This document shows, piece by piece, positions 24,908 to 39,210 of a stretch of 64,000 nucleotides of DNA. Origin of the DNA: a plasmid; sequence record OW849299.1, one strand, 5' to 3'. Both the position numbers and the translations under genes were made by a program. The first letter of the stretch is position 1; every line of letters begins with the position of its first letter. The notes beneath the pieces were generated by a model. That model was not told the DNA's origin, made no database searches, and saw nothing but the letters and a program-made list of their open reading frames with translations.

Positions 24908-25351
24908 ATGACTGATAACCGTAAGTGCTCGTTTTATATCTACCCGGAGCGCAATGCGGCGGACCGGGTAGCCGACGGCTTTCTTGAGAAACTGCCTCAG
25001 AAAGAGCGTGGCCGCGCGATGCGCGCCATGATGCTCTGTGGTGCCGCGTTGATGAAGCAGGACGAACGCCTGCCGTTCCTGATCGCTGAATTCCTGACGG
25101 AGAGCACCACGATGCAGGATATTCAGCGGATCATCAGCAGTACGCTGCCGCAGCAGGATACAGGAGAAATGGCGCGTCTGGTTGAGGCGTTTCTGCAGGC
25201 CACCGGCGGTGGCAGCAATACGGTGTCGCCGGCAGGCGGCGCTGCGCCGGAAAACAGTCCCGCCGTGGCTCCCGAACCGGCAGCACCGGAGGATAAGAAT
25301 CTGGAAGAAACCCGTAAGAACGTCCAGCATCTGTTCCCGGATGATGATTAA
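24908..25351 (+). CDS. parR: ParR/StbB-like segregation adaptor protein
   Basis: 147 aa directly after parM; acidic/proline-rich C-terminus. Confidence 0.6.
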   Translation: MTDNRKCSFYIYPERNAADRVADGFLEKLPQKERGRAMRAMMLCGAALMKQDERLPFLIAEFLTESTTMQDIQRIISSTLPQQDTGEMARLVEAFLQATGGGSNTVSPAGGAAPENSPAVAPEPAAPEDKNLEETRKNVQHLFPDDD

Positions 25352-25360
25352 GGGGGCTGC

Positions 25361-25924
25361 GTGAAAAAATATGTGCTGTTAACCCTGACCCTCATCGCCG
25401 GCGCCGTGGCAGCAAACCCGGTAACAGCGGCCGGCAATATTGCCGGCGATGTCCAGGCGCAAGCTGCGACTGAAGTGAAAACCGGGTTTTCACCCGGCGG
25501 GACCGCATTAAATCTGGTTCTGGATTCAATCGACCACGCGCAGCATGAGATTCTGGTTGCCGCGTACAGCCTGACCAGTCGTCCTGTTGCCGGCGCGTTG
25601 CGTGCCGCAAAAAAACGGGGCGTATCGGTGGTGGTGGTGGCCGATCGCAAAGCGAACGACAACCGGTACACCGAAGTGAACTTTCTGGCCAATAACCGCG
25701 TGGCGGTGCGGATCAACGATAACTACGAGGCCATGCATGATAAATTCATGGTCTTTGACCGCCGCGCCGTATTGACCGGCTCGTTTAACTTCAGCGCCAG
25801 CGCAGACAGTCGTAATGCGGAAAATGTGGTGCTGATCAGCGGCGCGCCTGCAGTAACTGAAGCCTACGTGAACGAGTTTTCCCGTTTATGGGACGAAGGA
25901 AAGGACGTGGCTCCACGGTACTGA
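25361..25924 (+). CDS. nuc: Phospholipase D-family endonuclease Nuc (secreted, single HKD motif)
   Basis: GTG start with SD AAGGGGG; signal peptide; HKD motif AMHDKFMVFD…GSFNFSASA. Confidence 0.75.
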   Translation: MKKYVLLTLTLIAGAVAANPVTAAGNIAGDVQAQAATEVKTGFSPGGTALNLVLDSIDHAQHEILVAAYSLTSRPVAGALRAAKKRGVSVVVVADRKANDNRYTEVNFLANNRVAVRINDNYEAMHDKFMVFDRRAVLTGSFNFSASADSRNAENVVLISGAPAVTEAYVNEFSRLWDEGKDVAPRY

Positions 25925-25964
25925 CCTACAGCAGCGGCAGAAACTCTGCCGCCTGATTTTTAAC

Positions 25965-26041
25965 TTGATTTATATGGCTCATTCGTCGTATTATCAAGGC
26001 TCATTTTTCGGTAGCGCCCCGACTGGCGAAGGAGTAAAACC
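25965..26041 (+). promoter_or_regulatory. Leading-region promoter/leader element, copy a (diverged: TTGATT-18-TATTAT, then conserved leader)
   Basis: TTGATTTATATGGCTCATTCGTCGTATTAT… then CGGTAGCGCCCCGACTGGCGAAGGAG 7 nt before the ATG at 26042. Confidence 0.55.
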
Positions 26042-26548
26042 ATGCAATCATTCCCCCTGTTCGTTTCCCGTGTCGTTCCTGTGATCACCCTGAGCCATTG
26101 TCTGCGGCAGCGGCGCTGGTCCCTGCACAACACGCCATGCCAGATTGACCTGAGATCAGGTTGTCACCTGCGCTCACAGCCTTTCGGCACGCTATCCAGA
26201 CGGGAAATAAGCGACCGGCCACCGGCTATGCCCCGCGGTTACTGGTTCAGGCAATGCAGCCGGGATGTCATGTTTACGGGGCGCATCGATCAGGCAGATC
26301 CTATGAAACAGGTCTATTACAACGAAGGCTGGAGCGGTCCGAACAAGTATACGTTTGAAGTTTATCAGCTGGAGAACGGGAGTTACCGGGCGCTGGCCCG
26401 CAAATGGAATGGCAAAATCAACAAGGTGCAGCAGGAAACGCAGTACCTGTCTGACACGCGGGAGGGGCTGAAGCACCAGGACTATCCCCGCACGCGCCAG
26501 GTGAAAATTTTTCTGAATTCAGACTTCTGGGAGAAGGGTAATGATTAA
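26042..26548 (+). CDS. Hypothetical protein (168 aa)
   Basis: Preceded by the conserved leader + SD. Confidence 0.55.
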   Translation: MQSFPLFVSRVVPVITLSHCLRQRRWSLHNTPCQIDLRSGCHLRSQPFGTLSRREISDRPPAMPRGYWFRQCSRDVMFTGRIDQADPMKQVYYNEGWSGPNKYTFEVYQLENGSYRALARKWNGKINKVQQETQYLSDTREGLKHQDYPRTRQVKIFLNSDFWEKGND

Positions 26549-27020
26549 GATGGTTAGCGTCGTTCCGCAGCCGGAAACAGTGAAGACGCTCCGGGAAAAA
26601 ATGGGCATGACTGAAACCGCATTAGGGGCTGTCATGGGGTACGAACTGCGCGCCTGGCAGCGTAAGGAAGCTATCAGCGACGATCTCAGCCAGTACAACA
26701 AGACCAGTCTTCGCCCAGGCGAATATAACATGCTGATGCTGATCGCCGGCGTGCATCCTGATTACCGCCTGAACAGGGCATTCAGTCCTGATGATATGGT
26801 CAAAGATCCCGCCACGGCCGAAGACGTTCGCCGCCTGCGTCTGGCGCTGGGGCTGAAGCACGCTGAAATTGCAGCGCTGTTTGGCTATAAACCGGCGTCA
26901 TGGCAGACCAAAGAAAAGGCTGCTCAGCGCGGCGTAAAGCTCAAGACCGGGGAATTCAATTTCCTGTTACTTCTGGCCGGTGAGCATCCGTCACTGCAGC
27001 TGGTTGAGAAGGCGAAATAA
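26541..27020 (+). CDS. Protein with two tandem XRE-like HTH modules (159 aa)
   Basis: Internal duplication: …MGMTETALGAVMGYELRAWQRKEA…RPGEYNMLMLIAGVHP… / …LGLKHAEIAALFGYKPASWQTKEK…KTGEFNFLLLLAGEHP…. Confidence 0.55.
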   Translation: MIKMVSVVPQPETVKTLREKMGMTETALGAVMGYELRAWQRKEAISDDLSQYNKTSLRPGEYNMLMLIAGVHPDYRLNRAFSPDDMVKDPATAEDVRRLRLALGLKHAEIAALFGYKPASWQTKEKAAQRGVKLKTGEFNFLLLLAGEHPSLQLVEKAK

Positions 27021-27048
27021 GGCCCGCGGCGACCAGAGAGGACCCTTT

Positions 27049-27459
27049 ATGATCACCACACGCCGAATGTTAATGCTGTATGCCTGCCTTGTGCCCGTAG
27101 CCCTGACAGGGTGTGATCTGGCTGATTATTTCCCGAATGTGCCACAGCCCGTGCCCGTGATTTCGCCCGGCTATCAGGTTGATATCGATGGCCACCCGGT
27201 CCGAATATCAGGATTTGATGACTGTCCGCGGGAAAAAGATGAAGCCCGGCACGCAGCTGCACAAGATGAGAAAGGCTGCATTGTGCTGTCTGCAGAGCGT
27301 TCCGAGGTGAAGGTCAGACTGTATCAGCCAGCCGGCGCCGTCACCGAAACCTGGCGGATCATCCGGGAAAAAGACGCTCGCCAGAACGATATTATTCGCC
27401 TGCAGCGCCCGAACGGTGCGCTTGTGATGCAAAATTTACAGGGGAAAGAGTCTCCTTAA
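27049..27459 (+). CDS. Lipoprotein (lipobox LTGC), 136 aa
   Basis: MITTRRMLMLYACLVPVALTGC; SD GAGAGGA. Confidence 0.55.
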   Translation: MITTRRMLMLYACLVPVALTGCDLADYFPNVPQPVPVISPGYQVDIDGHPVRISGFDDCPREKDEARHAAAQDEKGCIVLSAERSEVKVRLYQPAGAVTETWRIIREKDARQNDIIRLQRPNGALVMQNLQGKESP

Positions 27460-27482
27460 ACCAGGGAAATAACAAAATTAAC

Positions 27483-27576
27483 TTGATTTATATGGCTCAT
27501 TAGACGTATAATAATTACATCGAAAGGCAATCCGGTCTTTCGACGGTAGCGCCCCGACCGGCGCAGGAGTCACCTT
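27483..27576 (+). promoter_or_regulatory. Leading-region promoter/leader element, copy b
   Basis: TTGATT-18-TATAAT with ATGGCTCATTAGACGTATAAT core; leader hairpins TCGAAAG…CTTTCGA and GCGCC-ccgacc-GGCGC then AGGAG. Confidence 0.6.
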
Positions 27577-27840
27577 ATGACTGCTCTCAATTCTCAGCAA
27601 CAGGCTGATGTTGCCCGCTATATCCGGGAACATGGCAATAAAACCGTTATTTCCCCTGAATGGTCACTTATTTATTTCTCGCTGTGTCAGTGTGAATTAC
27701 ATCAATCGCATGAAGCCATTATTTTTCATAATGGCCGACCTGCAGGGCTATTTATTCTGAATGAAACAGGCGAGCTCACCGAATTATATCTGCTGGGGTC
27801 GCTTTCTGACATTCTCACCGCCGCTGCGGTCAACAAATAG
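27577..27840 (+). CDS. Hypothetical protein (87 aa)
   Basis: ATG 7 nt after the leader SD. Confidence 0.5.
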   Translation: MTALNSQQQADVARYIREHGNKTVISPEWSLIYFSLCQCELHQSHEAIIFHNGRPAGLFILNETGELTELYLLGSLSDILTAAAVNK

Positions 27841-27861
27841 CTTTCAGGGAGTAAATACACT

Positions 27862-28224
27862 ATGACCATGCAATCAGAACTTGTTTTTACTGATCCTATG
27901 CTCAACGTCGTTATTGCTGAAGTTAAGCGTTTTAATTGCCCGCTTCTTTTTGTCAAAGATCATGGCGTGTATGTGATGGCGGCGAAAGGTGAGAAAAACA
28001 GTAATGGGATGCACAATGTCTGTTACGCCAATGGTTTTAATCCGGATACAACGGATTTTGACGAGCTCTGGGACCGGATGCGTGATGCCTGTGGCGGAGA
28101 TGATTTTTGCGAATCCCTGGAGCTCGATCCGAGGTCGATTGAACTTCTCAGCCGTACCAAACCCTGCCTGAAAATTATGCTTTCAGAGACGGAACTGGAA
28201 GTTATTGCAGGGGGACAGAAATAG
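27862..28224 (+). CDS. Hypothetical protein (120 aa)
   Basis: SD AGGGAG; acidic protein; no family recognised. Confidence 0.5.
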   Translation: MTMQSELVFTDPMLNVVIAEVKRFNCPLLFVKDHGVYVMAAKGEKNSNGMHNVCYANGFNPDTTDFDELWDRMRDACGGDDFCESLELDPRSIELLSRTKPCLKIMLSETELEVIAGGQK

Positions 28225-28268
28225 ACCATAAAAGCCCGTTAAATCGGGCTTTTTTATATTTCACTGTA

Positions 28269-28300
28269 TTTACATCTAGGACAAAATGTCCTATTATATA
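28269..28300 (+). promoter_or_regulatory. Promoter TTTACA-17-TATTAT with a perfect 7-3-7 palindrome TAGGACAAAATGTCCTA (28277-28293) in the spacer; KorC-operator-like
   Basis: The palindrome closely resembles the RK2 KorC operator TAGGGCATAATGCCCTA (recall); it lies upstream of the radC-like/korC-like pair, suggesting autoregulation. Confidence 0.55.
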
Positions 28301-28345
28301 TTTGTGGCCGGGCATGGTGCTCAGGTCCCCTAACGAGGGAAATAT

Positions 28346-28795
28346 ATGAAATTTTCAGCAGAAGAACTCAACATTATCCGCCAGGCGGACGCCATTATTG
28401 CCGGTAAAATTACCACAACGGATTTTATCACCGGCGCCGACGCCGCGCGTTCCTTACTGCGGTTTCGTCTTGCTGCAGAACCACGCGAATCATTCTGCGC
28501 GTTCTTTCTTAACTGCCACAACGGCGTGATTGCGTTTGAAGAACTGTTTAAGGGAACTATCAGCAGCGTCACCGTTCATCCGCGTATCGTCCTGCAACGC
28601 GCCCTGCATCATAATGCCGCCGCCGTGGTACTGGCGCATAACCATCCTTCCGCTAACACTACACCCAGCCAGGCTGACAAGCTGATCACCGAGCGTCTGG
28701 CGCAGGTGCTGGGGATGGTTGATGTCAAAGTCCTCGATCACCTGATTGTGGGCGGCAGCGATATTTACTCTTTTGCTGAACATGGTCTGATTTGA
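28346..28795 (+). CDS. radC: RadC-like JAB-domain protein (UPF0758 / DUF2466 family)
   Basis: …HNHPSANTTPSQADKLITERL… JAMM/RadC signature; 149 aa. Confidence 0.7.
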   Translation: MKFSAEELNIIRQADAIIAGKITTTDFITGADAARSLLRFRLAAEPRESFCAFFLNCHNGVIAFEELFKGTISSVTVHPRIVLQRALHHNAAAVVLAHNHPSANTTPSQADKLITERLAQVLGMVDVKVLDHLIVGGSDIYSFAEHGLI

Positions 28796-28839
28796 TAACC
28801 GCGGCCGCACAGTGGTGCGGCCGGCTCTGGAGGCTTGCT

Positions 28840-29106
28840 ATGGGCAATAAATATACCGTGCCGCTTAACGTGGGCGCGATCCGCGAAAGCTGTTTCCGTC
28901 CCGCTGATAAATGGACCCCGCCGACGGGGGATGAACTCCGCTATCTGCTGGAAAATGTGCTCAACCTGAGTCAGGAGGGACTGGCGCGACATGTCGGCGT
29001 GAACGGCAGAACGGTGCGCCGCTGGGTGAACGGAGAAAGTGACATCGCGTATTCCGTCTGGTGCGTCCTTTGCATCGATGCCGGCTTACCGCCGATCTGG
29101 AAATAG
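28840..29106 (+). CDS. korC: Small HTH transcriptional repressor, KorC-like (88 aa)
   Basis: …LSQEGLARHVGVNGRTVRRWVNG… HTH; SD GGAGG; a strong hairpin GCGGCCGCAC-agtg-GTGCGGCCG separates it from radC; the KorC-like operator lies upstream of the operon. Confidence 0.45.
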   Translation: MGNKYTVPLNVGAIRESCFRPADKWTPPTGDELRYLLENVLNLSQEGLARHVGVNGRTVRRWVNGESDIAYSVWCVLCIDAGLPPIWK

Positions 29107-29169
29107 CAGCGCAAAACACCGACGCGCAAACGTGCTTCCTGAACGTATCGGATATACGAAGGAAATATT

Positions 29170-29452
29170 ATGAATACTGATAACTATTTTTTCAGAGTCC
29201 CGGCCACACGCGGAATACAGGGCGGCATAGAACAATACATGCTGACGGTTCCTATGGTCGTGTTACGTCGTATTCTTGCAATGGACAATGATGGCGATGT
29301 TATGGATCGCAGCCAGCGAGAAGCGAACAAAACGCGGGCCAAAAAAATACGGAATTATGTTGCCGGCGCAACATCAAAACGAGCTCCCTATATTTTGCCG
29401 TCAATTACCGGAAATATTGATAGTCATGTTGAATTCCTTCCCAGCGAACTCT
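29170..29452 (+). pseudogene. DGQHR-domain (DndB-like, ParB/Srx-fold) protein, N-terminal fragment, truncated by IS1
   Basis: …RSQREANKTRAKKIRNYVAGATSKRAPYILPSITGNI… (the QR…ITG motifs of the DGQHR family) runs into the IS1 IR; the stop codon is provided by IS1. Confidence 0.6.
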
Positions 29453-29467
29453 GGTAATGACTCCAAC

Positions 29468-29971
29468 TTATTGATAGTGTTTTATGTTCAGATAATGCCC
29501 GATGACTTTGTCATGCAGCTCCACCGATTTTGAGAACGACAGCGACTTCCGTCCCAGCCGTGCCAGGTGCTGCCTCAGATTCAGGTTATGCCGCTCAATT
29601 CGCTGCGTATATCGCTTGCTGATTACGTGCAGCTTTCCCTTCAGGCGGGATTCATACAGCGGCCAGCCATCCGTCATCCATATCACCACGTCAAAGGGTG
29701 ACAGCAGGCTCATAAGACGCCCCAGCGTCGCCATAGTGCGTTCACCGAATACGTGCGCAACAACCGTCTTCCGGAGCCTGTCATACGCGTAAAACAGCCA
29801 GCGCTGGCGCGATTTAGCCCCGACGTATCCCCACTGTTCGTCCATTTCCGCGCAGACGATGACGTCACTGCCCGGCTGTATGCGCGAGGTTACCGACTGC
29901 GGCCTGAGTTTTTTAAATGGCGGAAAATCGTGTTGAGGCCAACGCCCATAATGCGGGCGGTTGCCCGGCAT
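29468..29971 (-). CDS. insB: IS1 InsB
   Basis: Identical to 8392-8895. Confidence 0.85.
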
Positions 29972-30165
29972 CCAACGCCATTCATGGCCATATCAATGAT
30001 TTTCTGGTGCGTACCGGGTTGAGAAGCGGTGTAAGTGAACTGCAGTTGCCATGTTTTACGGCAGTGAGAGCAGAGATAGCGCTGATGTCCGGCGGTGCTT
30101 TTGCCGTTACGCACCACCCCGTCAGTAGCTGAACAGGAGGGACAGCTGATAGAAACAGAAGCCAC
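29890..30165 (-). CDS. insA: IS1 InsA
   Basis: Identical to 8814-9089. Confidence 0.85.
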
Positions 30166-30220
30166 TGGAGCACCTCAAAAACACCATCATACACTAAATC
30201 AGTAAGTTGGCAGCATCACC

Positions 30221-31210
30221 GGGATTCTTAAAATTCCGATGGACGCTGATTTAAAATTATTCGATGGCCAGCACCGTGCGCTGGGTATTTTTGAATTTGT
30301 ACGCGATTATTCCAATACGGAAGATACGATCAGCTTGTTGCTTACCGTTGGCCTGCCACTTGAGTTACGCCAGCAGTTTTTCGCTGATATTAATAACAAC
30401 GCGAGCAAACCGGCAGCGGCGATCAGTATGGCATATAACAACAATGATCCGGTCAACCAGCTGGCAATGCATCTGGCCCGAACCGTCACCGGGCTGGCGG
30501 GCACAGTGGATTTTGAACACAACGTGGTCCCGGCGAAAAGCTCACGGCTGATCAGCTTTAAAGCACTGAACGATGCGACGAAAAAAATGCTCAACCTGCG
30601 GGCCAACAGCATTCCCTCGACGCAACAGCGTGATATGGCAGAAAAGCTCTGGACTGCCTGGGCACAGGCGATGCGCTGGAATGATATTGCCCAGGATGAT
30701 ATCGCTGCGGAGTACCGTCAGGAGGCGCTGGGACTGCATGGCATCATGATAAATGCGATCGGTATGGCAACGGCCAGGATGTTACGGCACAGAACACCTG
30801 AAAGCATCGAGAACCTTCTGGCCTGTGCGGAAAACGGAGACAACGGTTTTCATTATCGGGAGTCGTTTGTACCTGAGTGCTGGGAAGGGAAGTGTGTTGA
30901 TCCGGAGACTGGCACCATTAAAACTGACCGGCGGGCGCTTGAAGCAACGGCTGAAGCGCTGCAAAAGCTGATAGACCCGTTCGCAGATGCGCTGTGGTTG
31001 CGTGCTTATCTGCCAGTTGAAGAGGCGAGTGATACGGCATTACTGAAATATGCTGCTGACATCGAGAGTTATAAGCAGCGCACAGCCGTGCCGATGATCA
31101 ATATCGTGGAGAAGCTGAAGGCGCTGGGTGACGGCGAACCGCAGTTCAGAGCGTCGGTGCTGGCTTCCCGTGAGGGGCTAAGCCGCTATCTGGCCGGGGC
31201 TGAAGGCTGA
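30221..31210 (+). pseudogene. DGQHR-domain (DndB-like) protein, C-terminal fragment
   Basis: …LKLFDGQHRALGIFEF… DGQHR motif 10 codons after the IS1 junction; 323-aa ORF from an internal ATG. The frame is not restored by clean IS1 excision. Confidence 0.6.
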
Positions 31211-31230
31211 CGCGGTGGTTGCCGCCTGCA

Positions 31231-31261
31231 GGGCAATACGGGCATCGAACCCGTATTGCCC
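31231..31261 (+). terminator. Strong hairpin (perfect 12-bp stem GGGCAATACGGG / CCCGTATTGCCC) after the DGQHR gene
   Basis: Seen directly; no T-run, so it may act as an RNA stabiliser/processing site rather than a classical terminator. Confidence 0.4.
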
Positions 31262-31720
31262 TGAAACGCGCTGAGCCGCTCTCTGGGCGCGCATTTAAAA
31301 AACCTGTACCCATCATCGTTTTTATGTCTTTGACGAGTCCTGCCCCCTATTCTGGCCTTTTCTGATGTGATCCCGCCCTGGTGTCTGCAAGTTAACTTAA
31401 TTTTGACGCCCGCACAGCGTGTCTTCCCTGTTCATTTCTGCTCAGTTGCCGGCGTTTTCTGGCTGGCCTGTCGTACTAAAACACCTCTGGGCCCCTTCGG
31501 CTCCTGCCCGTCGGGCAGTCGTCAGCCACACTCCGCTAGCCAGGCAAAGCCTGGCAGCTCCGCCGAACCCCCTGCGGGGTTTCGGGCTATCGCTAGTGTC
31601 TGATGCCTGAACCCCTGCACCATGCCGGCAAAGCACCTTCATCGGGCTGATGGGGATCTGAAAAGCAAAATTTACAGGGAAAGGAGTTCAGGAAAAAACA
31701 AAGAAAATTAATCAGATAAC
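31262..31720 (+). other. ~460-bp GC-rich non-coding structured region with no convincing ORF; candidate ssi / ncRNA / single-strand element of the leading region
   Basis: Multiple local hairpins (GCCAGGCAAAGCCTGGC, CCCCCTGCGGGG, CCCGTCGGG…); the only ORFs are GTG-started, SD-less and overlapping. Confidence 0.3.
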
Positions 31721-31722
31721 GC

Positions 31723-31817
31723 TTGATTGTTATGGCTCATTAGACGTATAATGATCACATCGAAAGGCAATAAGGCTTTTCGCGGTAGCGCCCCGACTGG
31801 CGCAGGAGTAACAAATT
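31723..31817 (+). promoter_or_regulatory. Leading-region promoter/leader element, copy c
   Basis: TTGATTGTTATGGCTCATTAGACGTATAAT + leader hairpins + AGGAG. Confidence 0.6.
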
Positions 31818-31997
31818 ATGAGTAAAGCACTGACCCCCTCCCAGCTTAAAGCTGAACTGGAAACGCAGAAAGATGCGCTGCTGAAGGCGTGCCTGTATGC
31901 CCTCAACGAAATCCCTAACCGTCGTTTAAGTGGCCCGTATGCGTCCACGTATGCGCTGGCCGAGCAGGTCAGTAAACTGCTTCAGCGCTGCAAATAA
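31818..31997 (+). CDS. Small protein (59 aa) not in the ORF track
   Basis: MSKALTPSQLKAELETQKDALLKACLYALNEIPNRRLSGPYASTYALAEQVSKLLQRCK; ATG 7 nt after the conserved AGGAG. Confidence 0.5.
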   Translation: MSKALTPSQLKAELETQKDALLKACLYALNEIPNRRLSGPYASTYALAEQVSKLLQRCK

Positions 31998-32037
31998 TCA
32001 TTGATGGGCTGGCATTGCCAGCCCTGTTCACCCCTTA

Positions 32038-32069
32038 CGGTAGCGCCCCGCATGGCGCAGGAGTCTGAA
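32038..32069 (+). promoter_or_regulatory. Conserved leader element without a promoter (internal translation-initiation module)
   Basis: CGGTAGCGCCCCGCATGGCGCAGGAG 6 nt before ATG 32070; preceded by hairpin GGGCTGGCATTGCCAGCCC. Confidence 0.5.
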
Positions 32070-32930
32070 ATGTCATCTGAAAAAACTCTCCCGTCGGTCG
32101 ATCTGATGTCCTGCCAGCATGGCGGTGAAGTGATCCCGTCCATAGCTATTGAGCGCATTATCTCGTTGCGGAATGAAGGTATTCGCGTCTATCTCGACGG
32201 CATAGACAAGCTGCGAAAAGCGCGCGATCTGATGCAGCAGGCCGGAGGCTGTCAGTACCTGTATGACTACGACAAAGCCGTAGAGAGCGCGATCAAATGG
32301 AGCGACACCAGACCAGACCAGGCCGAAACGGCTATTTCCCGCGTTATCGACGGAAAAATCTGGGATCGGCTGATGTCGGAAACCGGCATGTATACGCTGA
32401 TGAGCAACAAACAACGTCAGGAATGGGATCGGCAGGTGGCAGGCGAGGAAATGCCGCCGATAACGCTGGAGAACGTTATGAGTACGTTCCGGCACCTGAA
32501 CGCAAGCAAGGCCGATACTTTCACGCAAGGGCTGATTGATATCTTTAAATCCCTGTCGTGGGATTATAAAACCAATAACCCCTGCATGTTTGGCAAGCGT
32601 ATCATCATCGCGCCGTTGCTCGATGTCTGGCGCAGTAGCTGGGTGCGCTTCAGCTCAGACGGGCACACCAAAATTGACGATCTGGCGCGGCCGTTCTACG
32701 TGCTGGACGGGCGTAACGTGCCTGATTACCGCGTTTCTGACGGTGCCAAACTGGATGCCTTTTTCAGTGAAAACCAGTTCAACGGTAAGGTGTTCGAGTG
32801 TGATTACTTCAGCGTGCGATATTACAAAAAGGGCAGCGCGCACATTACGTTTAAACGCCCGGAGCTGGTTGAGAAGATCAATAATCTGGTTGCCAGTCAC
32901 TATCCCGGAATGTTACCCCCTCGCGTGTAA
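32070..32930 (+). CDS. Hypothetical 286-aa protein (largest ORF of the small-gene array); candidate anti-restriction/establishment function
   Basis: Start placed by the leader SD (the ORF track extends to 32001 in the same frame); no motif I can name with confidence. Confidence 0.55.
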   Translation: MSSEKTLPSVDLMSCQHGGEVIPSIAIERIISLRNEGIRVYLDGIDKLRKARDLMQQAGGCQYLYDYDKAVESAIKWSDTRPDQAETAISRVIDGKIWDRLMSETGMYTLMSNKQRQEWDRQVAGEEMPPITLENVMSTFRHLNASKADTFTQGLIDIFKSLSWDYKTNNPCMFGKRIIIAPLLDVWRSSWVRFSSDGHTKIDDLARPFYVLDGRNVPDYRVSDGAKLDAFFSENQFNGKVFECDYFSVRYYKKGSAHITFKRPELVEKINNLVASHYPGMLPPRV

Positions 32931-33025
32931 TGCAGACGGCAGGCCGCATTTGCGGCCTGAAATATAAACAGGGAAAGGAAGTATTCCCCGGCCTGAAAAA
33001 ATCATGCCGGGCATGTATTTATTGC

Positions 33026-33119
33026 TTGATTAATATGGCTCATTAGACGTATAATAATCACATCGAAAGGCAATGAGGCTTTTCGCGGTAGCGCCCCGAC
33101 TGGCGCAGGAGTAATAAAT
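33026..33119 (+). promoter_or_regulatory. Leading-region promoter/leader element, copy d (canonical)
   Basis: TTGATTAATATGGCTCATTAGACGTATAATAATCA + TCGAAAGGCAATGAGGCTTTTCG + GGTAGCGCCCCGACTGGCGCAGGAG. Confidence 0.6.
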
Positions 33120-33458
33120 ATGGCTATTCAATCCCTTCAGTTCCGTAACGGCTCCGTTTCTCTTGGTGATGTTTTTGTTTCCAGCTGGGGTTATGAGCAG
33201 ACAAATACCTGTTTTTATCAGGTGATCGCCCTGCGCGGTAAGAAAACCGCCGTACTGCGCCGCATCGCTGCGCAGCAGGTGAAAGCAGACAGTGCAATGT
33301 CTGGCGAGTTAAAGCCGGTATTGAACGACTTTAAAGGCGAACCCGTGACCCGTCGCATCTGTGAAAACCATGAGCATCCGTCTGTCAGCATTGACGAGTA
33401 CGAACAGGCTTATAAGACCGATCCTAACGAAAGCCATTTTTACAGCACCTGGGGCTGA
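33120..33458 (+). CDS. Hypothetical protein (112 aa)
   Basis: ATG after the conserved leader. Confidence 0.5.
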   Translation: MAIQSLQFRNGSVSLGDVFVSSWGYEQTNTCFYQVIALRGKKTAVLRRIAAQQVKADSAMSGELKPVLNDFKGEPVTRRICENHEHPSVSIDEYEQAYKTDPNESHFYSTWG

Positions 33459-33555
33459 CCGCCTGCTACGCCCCGCAAGGGGCGTATAGTCGAAGACTTA
33501 TTCAACCAAAACGTGAATACTATGCGAAATAACAAGGCGCTCAGGACGCAGATAC

Positions 33556-33786
33556 ATGGCGGAAACAGTTTATCAGGCGCGGAGGCGTTTTTACCTTCTC
33601 CGTTTTCGGCGCAGTCGTAACCCGGACACACTGGAAAAAATGTACGAATCCATGCGGGATCGTGGACAGGTGCCGCCGGAGGACACCGAGGCTTTTGAGG
33701 CTGCCGCCGACCATCGCCGCGCAGAGCTGGCATCGGGACGCATCTGGGATAAGATCCCGCCGCATGTCTGGCAGTATGTAAAATAA
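33556..33786 (+). CDS. Hha/YmoA-family nucleoid-associated modulator (76 aa)
   Basis: C-terminus …EAFEAAADHRRAELASGRIWDKIPPHVWQYVK matches the Hha signature (…AADHRLAELTMNKLYDKIP..VW…). Confidence 0.6.
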   Translation: MAETVYQARRRFYLLRFRRSRNPDTLEKMYESMRDRGQVPPEDTEAFEAAADHRRAELASGRIWDKIPPHVWQYVK

Positions 33787-33818
33787 TCACAGCGCCCCTA
33801 CACGGGGCGTTTTTTTGC

Positions 33819-33898
33819 TTGCATATATGGCTCATTAGACGTATAATGTTTTTACTGATTCAAATCAGTACCTTCCTAAACAGCCTTACAGGTGCATT
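33819..33898 (+). promoter_or_regulatory. Leading-region promoter element, copy e (TTGCAT-18-TATAAT) with a different leader (hairpin TACTGATTCAAATCAGTA)
   Basis: Core ATGGCTCATTAGACGTATAAT conserved; the leader is not the common one. Confidence 0.55.
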
Positions 33899-34012
33899 AT
33901 GACCTCTTCTGAAATCCTCCATAACCTCCCTCAGATTATCACGGCCGTGGCCGCCCTCATTACAGCCATTACCGGGCTGATTAAAGTCATGAAGGATAAA
34001 GGTAAGGACTGA
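33899..34012 (+). CDS. Small hydrophobic peptide (37 aa) not in the ORF track
   Basis: MTSSEILHNLPQIITAVAALITAITGLIKVMKDKGKD; one TM helix; downstream of promoter copy e. Confidence 0.4.
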   Translation: MTSSEILHNLPQIITAVAALITAITGLIKVMKDKGKD

Positions 34013-34049
34013 ACCGCCGCAGGGGGCGACAGCCCCCTGCATCCCTAAC

Positions 34050-34083
34050 CGGCAGCGCCCCGACTGGCGCAGGAGTAAAAAAA
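34050..34083 (+). promoter_or_regulatory. Conserved leader element without a promoter
   Basis: CGGCAGCGCCCCGACTGGCGCAGGAG 8 nt before GTG 34084; preceded by hairpin CAGGGGGCGACAGCCCCCTG. Confidence 0.5.
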
Positions 34084-34320
34084 GTGACAACGCTGCATAT
34101 TCGAGAAATTCCCACTGATGGAGCGCCGCCTATCTGTGCAGGCCGCTCAATCTCAGATGATGACCTTTGCGCCTCATGCCAGCATCTCGACTATCGCCCT
34201 GGGCACCTCAGCGCCTGCCTGCTGTCAGGTTGCGGGCGTGACGACTGGCCTTCAGAACTGGATGCAAACGGCTACAGCGTTGCCTGTAGCAGCTATGAGC
34301 GTGAAAAATCGCTTGATTAA
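34084..34320 (+). CDS. Cys-rich small protein (78 aa, GTG start)
   Basis: Frame chosen from the conserved SD position; 7 Cys (CAGRS…CASCQH…CLLSGC…) suggests a Zn-binding module. Confidence 0.45.
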   Translation: MTTLHIREIPTDGAPPICAGRSISDDDLCASCQHLDYRPGHLSACLLSGCGRDDWPSELDANGYSVACSSYEREKSLD

Positions 34321-34404
34321 TATGGCTCATTAGACGTATAATTATCACATCGAAAGGCATCCGGTCTTTCGCGGCAGCGCCCCGACTGGCGCAGGAGTTT
34401 TACA
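34313..34404 (+). promoter_or_regulatory. Leading-region promoter/leader element, copy f
   Basis: TTGATTAATATGGCTCATTAGACGTATAATTATCA + leader. Confidence 0.6.
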
Positions 34405-34815
34405 ATGCACGGTAACGTAAATGAAATTTGCGCAAGGCTTCTCGATAGTTTTGATCCACAGCAGCGGATCAGCCTGCTGATCTGGACTGCTGAAGATGTC
34501 CATGACTGCACCAGTGATATGAACCTCACTGACGATGAGGCCGAAGCCGTTCTGGCAGAAATCGCGGAATGCAGTTCACACAGCCGTTATGGCGTCGGAA
34601 AAGATACCGTCTGGAGCCTGGCAAAGCAGGTGCGCGAAGATGCCGCCCGCGATCGAAAAATAGAGGTCAATGCCGAGGCGCTGCAAAAAGTCGTGGCGCT
34701 GGCGGCGCAGTTTATCCGGCTGGAAGAAATCCAGTCTGGTGAAGGAGCTGCACGCCGACTTTATCCGCAGGAGTCTGAGGCGCTGGAGTGCATCACGAAG
34801 GTGATTAACGGCTAA
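34405..34815 (+). CDS. Hypothetical acidic protein (136 aa)
   Basis: ATG after the conserved leader. Confidence 0.5.
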   Translation: MHGNVNEICARLLDSFDPQQRISLLIWTAEDVHDCTSDMNLTDDEAEAVLAEIAECSSHSRYGVGKDTVWSLAKQVREDAARDRKIEVNAEALQKVVALAAQFIRLEEIQSGEGAARRLYPQESEALECITKVING

Positions 34816-34842
34816 TTCACGCAGTAACGCAGCGAACTTTCA

Positions 34843-34876
34843 CGGTAGCGCCCCGACTGGCGCAGGAGGAAAAAAC
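34843..34876 (+). promoter_or_regulatory. Conserved leader element without a promoter
   Basis: CGGTAGCGCCCCGACTGGCGCAGGAGG 8 nt before ATG 34877. Confidence 0.5.
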
Positions 34877-35182
34877 ATGTCCCAGAATGAAGCCTATTAC
34901 GACACGCTGGCCCTGATTGAAAAGGGGCAATGGTGTTTCGGCAGTATGGACGAAGAAAACGAAGAGCGGGCAATCAAGGCCGCTAAGGCGCTGGCGCTGT
35001 TTGCGCGCCTGAATGAGCAGGACTGCGACGGACACCCGGTTTCCGAAATCATCGTTGATTTTATCGCTAACCTGATGCACCTGGGGGAAGCGATAAATTT
35101 TCGTGTGCTCGATGAAGAAAGCGCGGTGATCCCGTTGGTCAGGATCGCCGCCGTACACTTTAACGCTGAAACAAAGTCATAG
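34877..35182 (+). CDS. Hypothetical acidic protein (101 aa)
   Basis: ATG after the leader. Confidence 0.5.
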   Translation: MSQNEAYYDTLALIEKGQWCFGSMDEENEERAIKAAKALALFARLNEQDCDGHPVSEIIVDFIANLMHLGEAINFRVLDEESAVIPLVRIAAVHFNAETKS

Positions 35183-35287
35183 TAATCATGTGAATCAGAA
35201 GGGGGCAGGCGTGATCCTGCCCCCAAAAATGGACAGGGGAAAGAGTTCTCCCGCCTGAAAATATTCAGGCAGGCGGGAATTTTTTGC

Positions 35288-35382
35288 TTGATTAATATGG
35301 CTCATTAGACGTATAATAATCACATCGAAAGGCAATCCGGTCTTTCGACGGTAGCGCCCCGACTGGCGCAGGAGTACAGAAA
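35288..35382 (+). promoter_or_regulatory. Leading-region promoter/leader element, copy g (canonical), driving klcA
   Basis: Identical to copy d over ~90 nt; preceded by terminator CCCGCCTGAA…TTCAGGCAGGCGGGAATTTTTT. Confidence 0.6.
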
Positions 35383-35823
35383 ATGTCTACTGAACTGAAT
35401 CAACCCGCCATCACTGCACGCATTATCCCCAATAACCGCCGCATGGCCTTTCTGCCACGTCTGTTCGGCGCCTGGTATCTCACAGGTGAGGCCGGTGTCT
35501 ACAACCTCGCACGCTCTCTCTGCGTCGATTATCAAGGCGGTTCCTGGGAGTTCGTCGAACTGTCTTGCGGTAGCGGCTTCATGTACCCACTGAGCGCAGA
35601 GCGCTTCACGGTATCGGTTAGCGGTAACTGGTTCGAAGGGGAACTGTCCGCAGAAGCTACCGGTATCGTGCTGACCCTGTTCACCCTGAACCACATGATC
35701 TGGCACGCACATGATGAAGGCTATCAGCACATCTGCGACATGCTGATCACCCAGCAGGAAAAGCTCAAATTATATGCCGACCAGCACGCCGAAGCCGGTT
35801 TGATTTACCGCGCGATTGACTGA
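35383..35823 (+). CDS. klcA: Anti-restriction protein KlcA/ArdB family
   Basis: 146 aa, MSTELNQPAITARIIPNNRRMAFLPRLFG… resembles RK2 KlcA / ArdB (recall). Confidence 0.7.
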   Translation: MSTELNQPAITARIIPNNRRMAFLPRLFGAWYLTGEAGVYNLARSLCVDYQGGSWEFVELSCGSGFMYPLSAERFTVSVSGNWFEGELSAEATGIVLTLFTLNHMIWHAHDEGYQHICDMLITQQEKLKLYADQHAEAGLIYRAID

Positions 35824-35866
35824 AACGGCGGCCCCCGTGAGGGGGCCAATACTGACAGGGGGAAAA

Positions 35867-36151
35867 ATGTTAACACTAACTGATATTCGCGCCAGCAATA
35901 CGGTGCTGGTTACGGAATTTGGCGGCGTGCGTGCTGTGCATTTCTGTCTGCATGAAAAATTAAGCGGTAGCGACAACGATCTGTGGTTTCCGCTTGCCAA
36001 TGGAGCCGACCTGTTCGAGGCGCTGGAAAGCATTATGTGCATCAATTTTGCCGCTGCTAACGTTGTCTCGCTGGAGTTCCTGCGGCAGAACGGGAAGTGC
36101 AAAGACTACCGGATCACCTACAACAAGGCCAAATTCAAGCCATTAGGTTAG
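35867..36151 (+). CDS. Hypothetical protein (94 aa)
   Basis: ATG 35867 with SD AGGGGGA (the longer ORF start at 35816 overlaps klcA). Confidence 0.45.
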   Translation: MLTLTDIRASNTVLVTEFGGVRAVHFCLHEKLSGSDNDLWFPLANGADLFEALESIMCINFAAANVVSLEFLRQNGKCKDYRITYNKAKFKPLG

Positions 36152-36215
36152 ATGTCTGGCATCATTTGATGTTCATATTTGAACAAAATTAAATAAAAAA
36201 AATACGTCTGATGAG

Positions 36216-36305
36216 TTGATAAAATGGCTCATTAGACGTATAATTATTACATCGAAAGGCAGTTGAGTCTTTCGCGGTAGCGCCCCGACTGGCGAAGGAG
36301 TTGAA
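36216..36305 (+). promoter_or_regulatory. Leading-region promoter/leader element, copy h (TTGATA-17-TATAAT), uniquely flanked by a 13-bp inverted copy of the core (TACGTCTGATGAG at 36204-36216)
   Basis: TACGTCTGATGAG…CTCATTAGACGTA form a 13-bp imperfect inverted repeat bracketing the -35; leader + AGGAG. Confidence 0.55.
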
Positions 36306-36527
36306 ATGAAAGAAGCAGACCAAAAAAAAGTGAATGCCGTAATGGCAATTGCTGATTATCTCGGTGTGAAAAATCAAATCGAGGTGATCGAATACTCAGC
36401 CGAATCAGTGCAGGTTGAGTGGCGAAATCCTAAAACAAAACAGCTTATTCATCGTGATTACACTTTTGCAAATTCCTTTGTAAAAGACTTTGAAAAAGCC
36501 CTGAAATCGAACGTGAAGTTTTACTGA
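36306..36527 (+). CDS. Hypothetical protein (73 aa)
   Basis: ATG after the leader. Confidence 0.5.
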   Translation: MKEADQKKVNAVMAIADYLGVKNQIEVIEYSAESVQVEWRNPKTKQLIHRDYTFANSFVKDFEKALKSNVKFY

Positions 36528-36532
36528 AAAAG

Positions 36533-36550
36533 AGGGGGAGAAATCCCCCT
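36533..36550 (+). terminator. Weak hairpin AGGGGGA-gaaa-TCCCCCT between orf73 and ssb
   Basis: No clean T-run; possible attenuator. Confidence 0.3.
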
Positions 36551-36598
36551 TAATCCTCCCATTTTTTACTGATAAACATCAAATATATGAGGTGTATT

Positions 36599-37033
36599 AT
36601 GTGGAAACGTGGCGAAAACAAAGTGATTCTGATGGGGCGTGCTGGCAAAGATGCAGAAGTGCGTTACACCCCAAACAGAACGGCCATTGCGAGCCTGACG
36701 CTGGCTACAGAAATCAGCTACAGCGACAACGAAGGGAAGGAGCAAAAAGAAACGGAATGGCATGATATTGTCATTTTTGGAAAGAAAGCCGAAGCAGCTG
36801 GGAAGTACTTCAAAAAGGGTATGATGCTGTATTTTGTCGGGCGCATTCGTAATAACAAATGGCAAGGGACAGACGGCAAAATGCGCAGCAATAAGGAAAT
36901 TGTGATCGATAATAACGGCGAAATGCAGATGCTGCCGGGAGCTGGGCCACGTAACACCAGTGCAGAAGGCCAGGGAGGCATTGAAAATCATGATGAACCG
37001 CCGTTCCCGGATATGAATGATTACCCGCAGTGA
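36599..37033 (+). CDS. ssb: Plasmid single-stranded DNA-binding protein SSB
   Basis: MWKRGENKVILMGRAG…WHDIVIFGKKAEAAGKYFKKGMMLYFVGRIRNNKWQ… OB fold, acidic C-terminal tail DEPPF. Confidence 0.85.
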   Translation: MWKRGENKVILMGRAGKDAEVRYTPNRTAIASLTLATEISYSDNEGKEQKETEWHDIVIFGKKAEAAGKYFKKGMMLYFVGRIRNNKWQGTDGKMRSNKEIVIDNNGEMQMLPGAGPRNTSAEGQGGIENHDEPPFPDMNDYPQ

Positions 37034-37088
37034 GTATTTGAGTTAGAACGGCCCGCAGGACGCGGGCCGCCAATCCAGAGGGGGGAGT

Positions 37089-37400
37089 ATGAATATCAGT
37101 GAACAATATCGGGTGGCGGTCGTCAGTACCGGCCATGTAAAAAAAGAAGACGCGGAACTACTGGACAAGGTCTGTAACGATGACTTGTCCGGTCAAGGTT
37201 TGTTCTGGATCGAGAAAAATCGCTATGGGTGGATATTGCGTATTTCTGCTACTGAACAATGGCGAGTGGAATTAACCAGGGCGGGGATCAGTGCAAGTGC
37301 TTTGGATAATATAGCCGCGTTAAATGGTGCCGGGTTCGACTGGATTTGGTTTGACCGGGATGCGGAACAGGTGCCAGAACTGACCGTTTGGGAGTGGTAA
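37089..37400 (+). CDS. Hypothetical protein (103 aa)
   Basis: SD GGGGGAG; follows hairpin CGGCCCGC-agga-GCGGGCCG. Confidence 0.5.
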   Translation: MNISEQYRVAVVSTGHVKKEDAELLDKVCNDDLSGQGLFWIEKNRYGWILRISATEQWRVELTRAGISASALDNIAALNGAGFDWIWFDRDAEQVPELTVWEW

Positions 37401-37440
37401 ACCGGTTAAAAATTTGCCTCGAAAAGGGGCATTTTTTTCT

Positions 37441-37532
37441 TGCCTGCAATGGCTCATTAGACGTATAATAATCGTGAAGTTTAAAAGTGGATATTGATTA
37501 AAACGCTCTGTAAATAACGTGGAGAGAATATT
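37441..37532 (+). promoter_or_regulatory. Leading-region promoter element, copy i (TTGCCT-18-TATAAT) with a non-conserved AT-rich leader
   Basis: Core ATGGCTCATTAGACGTATAAT conserved; drives an AT-rich gene. Confidence 0.5.
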
Positions 37533-38069
37533 ATGGCGGCCTTATACCCTTATGAGGTTTATACCCTTATTGTGTCAGAATTAATCGTAAGCCATTTTAA
37601 TGATGTCGCTATGGTATATCCGGGAAGCGAAGAAATTAAAAAGAACTACGACAGTGAATTAAGTGCTGTACAGGTAGTTAATGGCATCAGAGAAAAACTG
37701 ATTGAAGATGGTGTTATACAGTGCGAACAGTGCCCACTGCTATCCGAGTGGGATGAGAACAAGGTTATCAACCAGCTAATTAAAGATTACCGCCTGATTC
37801 TCAATCGTGACTATGAACTAAACCGTGTTCGTCAGCAGCTGGCCCCGGAGCTGATCGCACAGATAGAAAACTGGAAAGAGCAGAAGTATTCCGATTCTGC
37901 GAAGGAATACGAGGTGCTCTATGAAACCATCAACATCAACGGAAAGGAGGTTACAGGCAAACTAAACGTAGTTGCAGTAAGTCGCTTTGATGCTGTTTTC
38001 ATCGTAGGGCAGCGTCACGCTAACGATAACTTTTTGGTTCTGGATGTGAAGGAGGTGATGAATCATTGA
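37533..38069 (+). CDS. Hypothetical protein (178 aa, ~35% GC; compositionally foreign)
   Basis: SD GGAGAG; markedly lower GC than its neighbours. Confidence 0.5.
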   Translation: MAALYPYEVYTLIVSELIVSHFNDVAMVYPGSEEIKKNYDSELSAVQVVNGIREKLIEDGVIQCEQCPLLSEWDENKVINQLIKDYRLILNRDYELNRVRQQLAPELIAQIENWKEQKYSDSAKEYEVLYETININGKEVTGKLNVVAVSRFDAVFIVGQRHANDNFLVLDVKEVMNH

Positions 38070-38138
38070 AATCCAGAAAAGGTGCCGGATTGCGCCAACA
38101 ATCCGGCTGGGTAGGCAATTTAAATTGTGAGGTTCAAA

Positions 38139-38279
38139 ATGCCATTGTGGATTATACACTATGCTGAAGATGTCGCAAACGGAGTGCAAACAAAGTCGCA
38201 TCCGATGAACGCAGCGCAATGGGATCACTTCCGTTTCTGGTTGGCAGTGTTCCGGCGGATTAAAGAAGCCGCAATGTAA
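38139..38279 (+). CDS. Small protein (46 aa) not in the ORF track
   Basis: MPLWIIHYAEDVANGVQTKSHPMNAAQWDHFRFWLAVFRRIKEAAM; RBS context TGTGAGGTTCAAAATG identical to that of parM; followed by a terminator. Confidence 0.35.
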   Translation: MPLWIIHYAEDVANGVQTKSHPMNAAQWDHFRFWLAVFRRIKEAAM

Positions 38280-38294
38280 TCTGTAACTGTCTCA

Positions 38295-38318
38295 GGGGCG
38301 CTGTATGCGCCCCTTTTT
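38295..38318 (+). terminator. Rho-independent terminator (GGGGCGC-tgtat-GCGCCCC-TTTTT)
   Basis: Classical hairpin + T5 ending the leading-region transcription unit. Confidence 0.65.
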
Positions 38319-38570
38319 AATATCCTTGCCCGGACTCCTTTCCCTGTAAATTTATCGGGATCAAGGGCGGATCGTGGCCCTGAACGTGCGCACCATTGAG
38401 CGCTGCATCGCAGCGGAACCGGAAAATTTTTTTCCGGCCAATGAGTGCCCTTGTCACCGGAACGGTGACAAGTATGCACGCACAATTACACGAACAGGCA
38501 GCACCCATGCCCGGCCTGACAGGCCGGGAGCTATATCATAATGTGGGATGCTATATGTGAAAGGTGAAGG

Positions 38571-38936: not shown

Positions 38937-38969
38937 ATGCCCTCCCAATAATGTCAAAATCGCCATGCC

Positions 38970-39205: not shown

Positions 39206-39210
39206 ATCTG

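Follow-up and report, generated by a model that had tools for sequence, protein, structure and literature searches.

Nine repeated promoters with a candidate shared operator and a structured leader in the leading region of a pOXA-48-type plasmid

In the IncN plasmids pKM101 and R46, conserved repeats of the leading region (CUP) are described as each combining a promoter with a repressor site, through which anti-restriction and establishment genes are controlled by ArdK, the repressor gene itself lying under one repeat (Delver and Belogurov 1997, as described in PMC6289460). ArdK of the IncW plasmid R388 is one small helix-turn-helix (HTH) repressor of five establishment promoters (ardC, orf7, ssb, orf12 and orf14) with a conserved promoter motif, and it binds a site that is not a simple palindrome, as an asymmetric dimer on direct repeats (PMC9723621). 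The kil-kor system of RK2/RP4 (IncP) has repeated operator promoters over klcA-type genes, and loss of the repressor is lethal to the host (PMC12365149). The Aca autorepressors of anti-defence operons in phages and other mobile genetic elements are small Xre-type HTH proteins that turn strong promoters off after an initial burst, and IncI1 and F plasmids carry hairpin promoters (Frpo/ssi) on the incoming strand, 5' of klcA, ardA, ssb and psiB (PMC12672017). Here we analysed a stretch of 64,000 nucleotides (the window) of plasmid record OW849299.1, in which nine promoter-like repeats precede small operons, and we propose Orf20, a tandem-HTH protein encoded in the array, as their repressor. By its sequence the window is a pOXA-48-type IncL plasmid: a 13.5-kb region is 100% identical to OW970026.1, a plasmid of that type, and 99.9% identical to many others.

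The core of the repeat, the 21-mer ATGGCTCATTAGACGTATAAT, was matched exactly at 27492, 31732, 33035, 33827, 34322, 35297, 36224 and 37449, and a ninth copy with three mismatches, ATGGCTCATTCGTCGTATTAT, was found at 25974, all on the plus strand, the copies extending from 25974 to 37469. No further match exists in the 64 kb, and none was obtained in 100 shuffles. These matches bear out the nine same-orientation repeats of a preliminary description of this DNA, whose positions are those of the −35 hexamers, 9 nt 5' of the core. That description had also read the repeats as near-consensus sigma-70 promoters ahead of leading-region operons (klcA, ssb, hha, DUF4942 and others), and a scan for TTGACA/TATAAT agreed, recovering eight of the nine (25965, 27483, 31723, 33026, 34313, 35288, 36216 and 37440) with 9–11 of 12 consensus positions and spacers of 17–18 bp. 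Copy 5 (33819, TTGCAT-17-TATAAT), which has a perfect −10 and a weak −35, fell under the −35 threshold of the scan. The −35 is TTGATT, TTGATA, TTGCAT or TTGCCT, and in every copy it lies 77–95 nt before a start codon with a matching Shine–Dalgarno sequence (SD). Terminator hairpins with T-runs were detected by the scan directly 5' of copies 1, 5 and 9 and read by eye before copies 4 and 7; with terminators directly 5' of at least five copies, the units look insulated from one another. The longest exact run common to two copies is 53 nt, short of the more than 60 nt first claimed, and with few mismatches the likeness spans ~95 nt. Very probably these repeats are functional, co-regulated promoters, with activity and transcription starts as predicted from the DNA sequence. 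The copies and the open reading frames (ORFs) or genes behind them are:

25965–25994, plus strand: copy 1, degenerate promoter with candidate operator (TTGATT-18-TATTAT, core ATGGCTCATTCGTCGTATTAT), predicted to drive orf19-orf20-orf21; proposed autoregulatory copy
27483–27512, plus strand: copy 2 promoter with candidate operator, before an 87-aa ORF (27577–27840) and a DUF3085 gene (27862–28224)
31723–31752, plus strand: copy 3 promoter with candidate operator, before a 59-aa ORF (31818–31997) and a DUF4942 gene (32070–32930)
33026–33055, plus strand: copy 4 promoter with candidate operator, before a 112-aa ORF (33120–33458) and hha/ymoA (33556–33786)
33819–33847, plus strand: copy 5 promoter with candidate operator, TTGCAT-17-TATAAT, whose leader differs from the common one and has a 5' hairpin of its own, before ORFs for a 37-aa hydrophobic peptide (33899–34012) and a Cys-rich 78-aa protein (34084–34320)
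34313–34342, plus strand: copy 6 promoter with candidate operator, before a DUF1380 gene (34405–34815) and a 101-aa ORF (34877–35182)
35288–35317, plus strand: copy 7 promoter with candidate operator, before klcA (35383–35823) and a 94-aa ORF (35867–36151)
36202–36244, plus strand: copy 8 promoter with candidate operator, TTGATA-17-TATAAT (36216–36244), and an inverted core (36202–36215), before orf32 (36306–36527), ssb (36587–37033) and a DUF5983 gene (37089–37400)
37440–37469, plus strand: copy 9 promoter with candidate operator, TTGCCT-18-TATAAT, with an unrelated unstructured leader, before a 178-aa ORF (37533–38069); the copy nearest to the origin of transfer (oriT)

We aligned 26 distinct copies, taken from several plasmids of IncL/M type, with the −10 as anchor. 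In this alignment the block GGCTC-N-TTAG-N-CGTATAAT was invariant or nearly so, while the −35 drifted (TTGATT, TTGCAT, TTGCCT, TTGCTG, TTGTAA, even CTTTTT); the conserved spacer block comprises 15 nt, abuts the −10 and is constrained far more than the −35 hexamer. The spacer of a sigma-70 promoter normally carries no sequence constraint, so its invariance here suggests sequence-specific binding across spacer and −10, and conservation beyond the hexamers is what an embedded operator predicts. We propose the 15-nt block as a candidate operator. Homologous modules in two sister lineages carry other blocks. The plasmid p47733_ARR2 (107 kb, MOBP/MPF_I), whose leading region is syntenic and whose Orf20 homologue is 45% identical, has five such modules with the same leader architecture, all in the leading region, and their invariant block is GTATGTCTTTTGTCGTAT (5 copies, leading region only); set side by side, the candidate operator sequences read ATGGCTCATTAGACG in pOXA-48 and GTATGTCTTTTGTCG in p47733_ARR2. 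A Serratia Rep3/VirB plasmid lineage, with an Orf20 homologue of 42% identity and three modules, has a third block, ATATCAAACGATG. The preliminary description had instead taken the dyad ATTAGAC-GTATAAT for the shared operator. Its 6/7 symmetry holds in the eight exact copies and is broken in the degenerate copy 1; half of the dyad is the −10 itself, its outer left positions vary, the invariant block reaches beyond it with GGCTC falling outside, and it is absent from the homologous modules of both sister lineages. This leaves an asymmetric site of ~21 bp as the conserved unit, and the palindrome was abandoned as the shared operator. An outer TGATTA...TAATCA symmetry, which has another centre than the inner dyad and is found in some copies only, we treat as incidental.

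The unit behind copy 1 encodes the best candidate among the three repressors that had been named, the tandem-HTH protein at 26541:

26042–26548, plus strand: orf19, 168 aa, no Pfam family
26541–27020, plus strand: orf20, encoding a 159-aa protein with two Xre-type HTH domains in tandem, which we propose as the repressor of all nine promoters
27049–27459, plus strand: orf21, 136 aa, with an N-terminus resembling that of a lipoprotein; final gene of unit 1

Orf20 is an internal duplication of an HTH module of ~75 aa, the halves being 34% identical (E 2e-14), and its AlphaFold2 (AF2) model is compact and confident (predicted local distance difference test score, pLDDT, 89.8; predicted TM-score, pTM, 0.87). 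Pfam gave weak Xre/MqsA-type HTH matches. Against all PDB sequences at E ≤ 1, the N-terminal half matched Aca10 (7xi5; E 0.0026) and the only other hit was a chance match; Foldseek returned weak single-domain matches to Xre, Aca (including Aca1 and Aca2), HigA and C proteins (E > 0.1), and neither the PDB sequence search nor Foldseek found a full-length tandem analogue. There was also no sequence match to ArdK/KorA-family structures in PDB (E ≤ 1), in which ArdK structures are deposited (PMC9723621); with its Xre/MqsA-type HTH matches only, Orf20 was rejected as a member of the IncN/IncW ArdK (KorA-family) regulon. Orf20 amounts to a pseudo-dimer in which two different HTH domains are covalently joined, and for two non-identical fused domains an asymmetric operator is expected. 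A search for homologous proteins returned 9 matches only. Two homologues were set aside, P0007 (70% identical), on a 3-kb contig with no module, and H78, in the unrelated context of a phage-plasmid. In IncI2, IncX1 and IncX3 plasmids the halves are encoded by separate adjacent genes, and the SL2 leader hairpin described below is absent from these loci. Near the split homologues of the IncI2 plasmid pZJ3920-3 (6279–12345) there are seven copies of paired CTTTACAnTGTAAAG palindromes together with repeats of 222–300 nt; another kind of repeated control element thus takes this position.

Two 2025 Nature Communications studies found orf20 and korC essential for plasmid maintenance and stated their targets to be unknown (PMC12365149, PMC12361523). 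As reported there, orf20 could be deleted only with complementation in trans, recipients of the orf20-deleted plasmid were elongated and stopped dividing, and deletion of orf19 had no phenotype (PMC12365149); a CRISPR interference (CRISPRi) screen in clinical strains found the same genes, with the genes under their control still to be determined (PMC12361523). On balance we favour Orf20 as the repressor of the nine promoters, its binding and repression being predicted from comparison of the repeats and their relatives.

The copy ahead of orf19-orf20 is odd in three IncL/M-family loci and in p47733_ARR2: its core is altered or its −10 weaker, and it has no SL1 leader hairpin. An altered copy-1 core (CATTCGTCG, CATTCGCCG or CATTAGTCG) precedes the orf19-orf20 homologues in loci L004, L009, L010 and L038, and SL1 is missing from the autoregulatory copies of four loci in two lineages (the window, L004, L010 and L003). 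Such a copy would look like an autoregulated, lower-output repressor unit. orf19 lies upstream of orf20 and overlaps it translationally. The C-terminal ~80 aa of Orf19 form a conserved overlapping upstream neighbour of Orf20 homologues in three lineages (33–42% identity; window 26042–26548, L003 8726–8974, L007 9735–10004); we found no family match and no toxin family match for Orf19, which may be a partner, co-regulator or toxin. A homologue of orf21 is placed elsewhere in p47733_ARR2.

The preliminary description had overlooked that the repeat continues into a structured leader, parts of which recur away from the promoters. Six copies share a leader of ~60 nt 3' of the −10. It consists of stem-loop 1 (SL1), an 8-bp hairpin (CGAAAGGC-loop-GGTCTTTCG) that begins ~2 nt past the predicted start, stem-loop 2 (SL2), a 5-bp hairpin (GCGCC-CCGACT-GGCGC), and the SD AGGAGT, which abuts SL2. 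The SL2+SD element occurs 10 times, three times promoter-less before internal cistrons (32039, 34051 and 34844), and two of these three again have a hairpin in front:

25995–26041, plus strand: short leader of copy 1, SL2 and SD only, without SL1
27513–27576, plus strand: leader of copy 2, with SL1 (27521–27542), SL2 (27549–27564) and SD (27565–27570)
31753–31817, plus strand: leader of copy 3, SL1, SL2 and SD
32039–32064, plus strand: promoter-less SL2 and SD before the DUF4942 gene, preceded by the hairpin GGGCTGGCA..GCCAGCCC
33056–33119, plus strand: leader of copy 4, SL1, SL2 and SD, the SD predicted to be unpaired
34051–34076, plus strand: promoter-less SL2 and SD before the 78-aa ORF, preceded by the hairpin GCAGGGGGC..GCCCCCTGC
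34343–34404, plus strand: leader of copy 6, SL1, SL2 and SD
34844–34869, plus strand: promoter-less SL2 and SD before the 101-aa ORF
35318–35382, plus strand: leader of copy 7, SL1, SL2 and SD
36245–36305, plus strand: leader of copy 8, SL1, SL2 and SD

The helices were tested on 13 distinct leaders from this plasmid and from Klebsiella oxytoca, metagenome and Erwinia aeris relatives. Helix cells were paired in 98.8% of cases, against 38–48% in slid-partner controls; compensatory double changes were seen in 4 of the 8 SL1 pairs, and the covariation score was reached by none of 500 shuffles. On the sense strand, G-U pairs occupy thirteen SL1 cells, and GC-to-GU changes are tolerated on that strand only. 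Since sense-strand G-U pairs are C-A mismatches on the transferred strand (T-strand), the structure belongs to the mRNA and not to the incoming single-stranded DNA (ssDNA). Within the family SL2 shows one-sided GU changes, and it is kept with compensations in the two farther lineages (UCGCC/GGCGA in p47733_ARR2, CACC/GGUG in the Serratia plasmid), as is the conserved loop CCCCGA. Single-sequence folds leave the SD unpaired. We regard the leader helices as probably real. Rfam 15 (E ≤ 1, positions 25000–39500) assigned no family to any leader; the sole match in that range was a sub-threshold rimP leader at 28193–28298 (E 0.13), probably a chance match. Stem-loops at the 5' end shield E. coli mRNAs from RNase E, the paradigm being ompA, and by analogy SL1 may stabilise the mRNA while SL2 may keep the SD accessible; this double function of stabilisation and SD insulation is a tentative assignment, to which we give somewhat less than an even chance. 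In a scan of genome contigs with the SL2 leader, multi-copy matches were confined to IncL/M-like contigs of Pluralibacter gergoviae and Erwinia aeris, so the leader in this form is not widespread; the remaining matches, single and in GC-rich genomes, were read as chance.

In the K. oxytoca relative (L004, 13209–13236), klcA is an internal cistron behind SL2 and SD only, and in pOXA-48 (35288–35383) it stands directly behind a full promoter copy; judged from such arrangements, it is as if the units had been rearranged between relatives like cassettes. In copy 8, ahead of the ssb unit, an inverted core copy, ATACGTCTGATGAG, faces CTCATTAGACGTAT across the −35 (36202–36241); this inverted repeat of 14 nt is absent from the other eight copies and could be a second operator or provide tighter control of ssb. 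An ACAGGG(G)AAAG(G)AG box, noted earlier upstream of four copies, does stand before four −35 boxes, at 45–58 nt, but it is not specific to them, being present in at least 12 places on both strands (27438, 31674, 32968, 35233 and at least eight others, including 38347 on the minus strand); at 32969–32990 its minus strand reads as a hairpin and T-run terminator. Directly behind copy 5 lies an unannotated 37-aa ORF, MTSSEILHNLPQIITAVAALITAITGLIKVMKDKGKD (33899–34012, plus strand), with one hydrophobic helix and a basic tail, which is kept with its own leader in the K. oxytoca and P. gergoviae relatives. Its sequence suggests a small membrane peptide or a toxin, which could be the reason why derepression is lethal.

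In conjugation the relaxase remains on the 5' end of the nicked strand and transfer proceeds 5' to 3'. The nic sequence of pCTX-M3/IncI1 type (ACATCTTG/T; PMC8125031) is present in the window, adjoined by an inverted repeat:

39112–39120, minus strand: oriT nic site, ACATCTTG/T

With the nic site on the minus strand and the relaxase bound to its 5' end, the minus strand enters first, toward lower coordinates. The leading region is then the stretch from 38.9 to 25.9 kb, and its plus-strand genes have the transferred strand as their template. All nine promoter copies lie within the leading region. In RefSeq, a near-identical record is annotated with parM and with genes for a stability protein and a phospholipase D (nuc), then with ~25 small genes including radC/JAB, an HTH gene (korC), DUF4942, hha/ymoA, an antirestriction gene (klcA) and ssb, and after these with mobA(nikA)-traI. 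The nic site and its flanking inverted repeat (38965–39260) fall inside the ORF annotated as mobA/nikA (528 bp in RefSeq); as NikA of relatives has 103 aa, the annotated start is probably too far upstream.

The reading we prefer, to which we assign a probability of roughly 0.55, is that the array forms an establishment regulon repressed by Orf20, built of nine ordinary double-strand sigma-70 promoters in insulated, co-regulated cassettes. The parts of a cassette would be a terminator hairpin with T-run (at least five copies), a −35 and −10 with the operator in the spacer, SL1 (six copies) and SL2 5' of a strong SD. The transferred minus strand, which is the template strand, would arrive from the oriT end, and after second-strand synthesis, with no repressor yet present, the eight consensus copies would fire and express klcA, ssb, hha and ~15 small proteins. 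The source of Orf20 would be the ninth unit, the one at the greatest distance from oriT, whose core is altered and whose leader has no SL1; as Orf20 accumulates, it would bind the asymmetric spacer block over the −10, turn all units off and limit its own synthesis. Loss of Orf20 would derepress the array with its eight strong promoters, which would explain why orf20 cannot be deleted. The leader would most likely act as a stabilising 5' hairpin followed by an SD-insulating hairpin and give uniform high translation to any inserted gene. Most genes of the array are candidates for an anti-defence role.

Several points weigh against this reading. The link between Orf20 and the repeats is correlative: a second tblastn search with the p47733 homologue of Orf20 found no lineages of intermediate identity, so the covariation of repressor and operator rests on three discrete lineages. 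The idea of a weaker operator in copy 1 is soft, because the core positions at which this copy departs from the targets are variable in two Erwinia aeris target copies (AGTCG) as well. Copies 5 and 9 have leaders other than the common one, and single-sequence folding energies of the leaders are unexceptional (z −1.8 to +0.1). All copies derive from one ancestor, so gene conversion could add to their identity. The searched literature holds no expression, transcription start or binding data on these promoters, and no map of transcription starts of pOXA-48 was found. korC is essential too, and this reading gives no account of what it protects against. Finally, orf20 could be essential as part of a toxin–antitoxin pair, with the dispensable orf19 upstream as in mqsRA and higBA.

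KorC, another of the named candidates, is encoded inside the array:

28269–28297, plus strand: radC(orf24)-korC promoter, TTTACA-17-TATTAT, not one of the nine, directly 3' of a terminator (28230–28253), with the KorC-type operator TAGGACAAAATGTCCTA at 28277–28293
28840–29106, plus strand: korC, 88-aa HTH protein, rival repressor candidate

If KorC repressed all nine promoters, as KorC of RK2/RP4 does those of klcA, kleA and kleC, its place inside the array and the presence of klcA among the nine units would be accounted for, and the HTH protein is reported to be 39% similar to RP4 KorC and essential, korC being free of transposon insertions (PMC12365149). However, the KorC-type operator, an RK2-like palindrome, occurs once in 64 kb, in the radC-korC promoter, and no match was found in the nine copies at up to 3 mismatches; Baffert et al. 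(PMC12365149) give the same single KorC site and none at klcA. Furthermore, p47733_ARR2 has its five modules, yet tblastn (E ≤ 0.01) found no homologue of KorC in its 107 kb, which also lack a KorC-type operator, and the Serratia locus has modules with no KorC within 20 kb. Given its different, unique operator and the KorC-less p47733_ARR2, KorC is improbable as the shared repressor, against the earlier suggestion, and membership of the array in an RK2-type KorC regulon was rejected, the TAGG-N-CA..TG-N-CCTA-type operator being absent from the nine copies. We propose that KorC controls its own radC-korC unit only; the whole leading region is then not one regulon, as had been thought, since radC-korC-DGQHR is a separate KorC unit. 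The DGQHR-domain (DndB-like) gene 3' of korC (29170–31210) is interrupted by an IS1 insertion.

The toxin–antitoxin explanation of orf20 would do without any dedicated spacer-binding repressor: Orf20 would owe its essentiality to a toxic partner, for instance orf19, for which it served as antitoxin or autorepressor, the array would be constitutive or silenced by H-NS/Hha, and the identity of the copies would reflect gene conversion and selection for promoter strength. This would fit the weak matches of Orf20, which fall on antitoxin HTH domains of Xre-like and MqsA type, a reported effect of an H-NS-like gene on plasmid stability, and the position of hha inside the array. We consider this unlikely, because the spacer is invariant while the −35 drifts, unlike in normal sigma-70 promoters, and because in lineages with a diverged Orf20 the spacer is replaced blockwise and is still invariant within each plasmid; an antitoxin-type autorepressor would, moreover, bind its own promoter anyway, which is a copy of the same module. 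Much less probable is that the repeats are ssDNA promoters or priming sites of the Frpo/ssi type, active on the T-strand before complementary synthesis, although their place in the leading region, with the transferred strand as gene template, the hairpin promoters used by IncI1 and F plasmids (PMC12672017) and the 14-nt inverted core of copy 8 would fit this. T-strand folds of the nine intergenic regions (112–150 nt) gave small local hairpins (−7.8 to −23.5 kcal/mol, z +0.3 to −3.8), with no duplex pairing −35 with −10 and no long stem common to the nine, and the covarying helices use sense-strand G-U pairs, which are C-A mismatches on the T-strand. With no Frpo-like T-strand fold, early IncL/M expression would follow the classical logic of zygotic induction. 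Least probable of all, the repeats could be inert remnants of a duplicated segment. Their common ancestry is clear, but every copy has the same orientation, lies 77–95 nt before a start codon with a matching SD and, in at least five cases, directly follows a terminator hairpin; the hexamers are near consensus, and the conservation pattern and helix covariation extend across several plasmid lineages.

A more speculative extension of the Orf20 regulon, which we think doubtful, is that the repeat is a recombination-competent cassette socket. Any gene placed behind it would be enrolled in the Orf20 switch with uniform mRNA stability and translation, and by recombining with one another the copies would redistribute genes for establishment and anti-defence among plasmids without an integrase. 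The SL2 loop (CCCCGA-NN) may then be the target of Orf19 or of a host RNA-binding protein, as a second layer of control for promoter-proximal and internal cistrons.

pOXA-48 is the main vehicle of OXA-48 carbapenem resistance, and for the targets of Orf20 the repeat offers a testable answer: one 21-bp site, nine promoters and ~20 genes. If true, it would give a reason why loss of Orf20 is lethal to the plasmid–host pair, and either Orf20 or its operator would become a candidate target against the plasmid. It also suggests that IncL/M plasmids achieve early expression of the leading region by repressor-controlled double-strand promoters and not by the ssDNA promoters of IncF and IncI plasmids, and it adds a covarying leader RNA common to three plasmid lineages. 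No description of these repeats was found in the searchable literature, an early mention in Golebiewski 2007 (pCTX-M3 sequence) not being excluded.

Compared with CUP/ArdK, as far as that system is described in PMC6289460, the pOXA-48 repeats likewise combine promoter and proposed repressor site in the leading region, with the repressor gene under one of them, but the candidate is Orf20, not ArdK, and the element includes a structured mRNA leader. Like ArdK of R388, Orf20 would be one small protein acting on many establishment promoters through a site other than a simple palindrome; the motif of ArdK adjoins the −35 and the pOXA-48 block abuts and overlaps the −10, and the asymmetry comes from a flexible homodimer in ArdK and, as proposed here, from two different fused HTH domains in Orf20, with no homology detected between them. 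The RK2/RP4 system shares the repeated promoters over klcA-type genes and the lethality of repressor loss, but the KorC homologue of pOXA-48 has a single operator at its own promoter, and the nine promoters, klcA included, carry no KorC operator. Aca proteins resemble Orf20 in their small Xre-type HTH and the shut-off of strong promoters; they are homodimers on inverted repeats of one operon, whereas Orf20 is a fused tandem that would control nine dispersed promoters. With Frpo/ssi the array shares klcA, ssb and similar leading-region genes and the T-strand as template, yet it has no long T-strand hairpin, would need double-stranded DNA and would be shut off by a repressor instead of by loss of ssDNA. 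We read the array as a regulon of the leading region in which an operator-promoter is repeated, the repressor candidate is a tandem-HTH protein not homologous to the known repressors, and the leader RNA covaries; on our best reading it functions like the IncN CUP/ArdK, IncW ArdK and RK2 KorC regulons but is assembled from unrelated parts.

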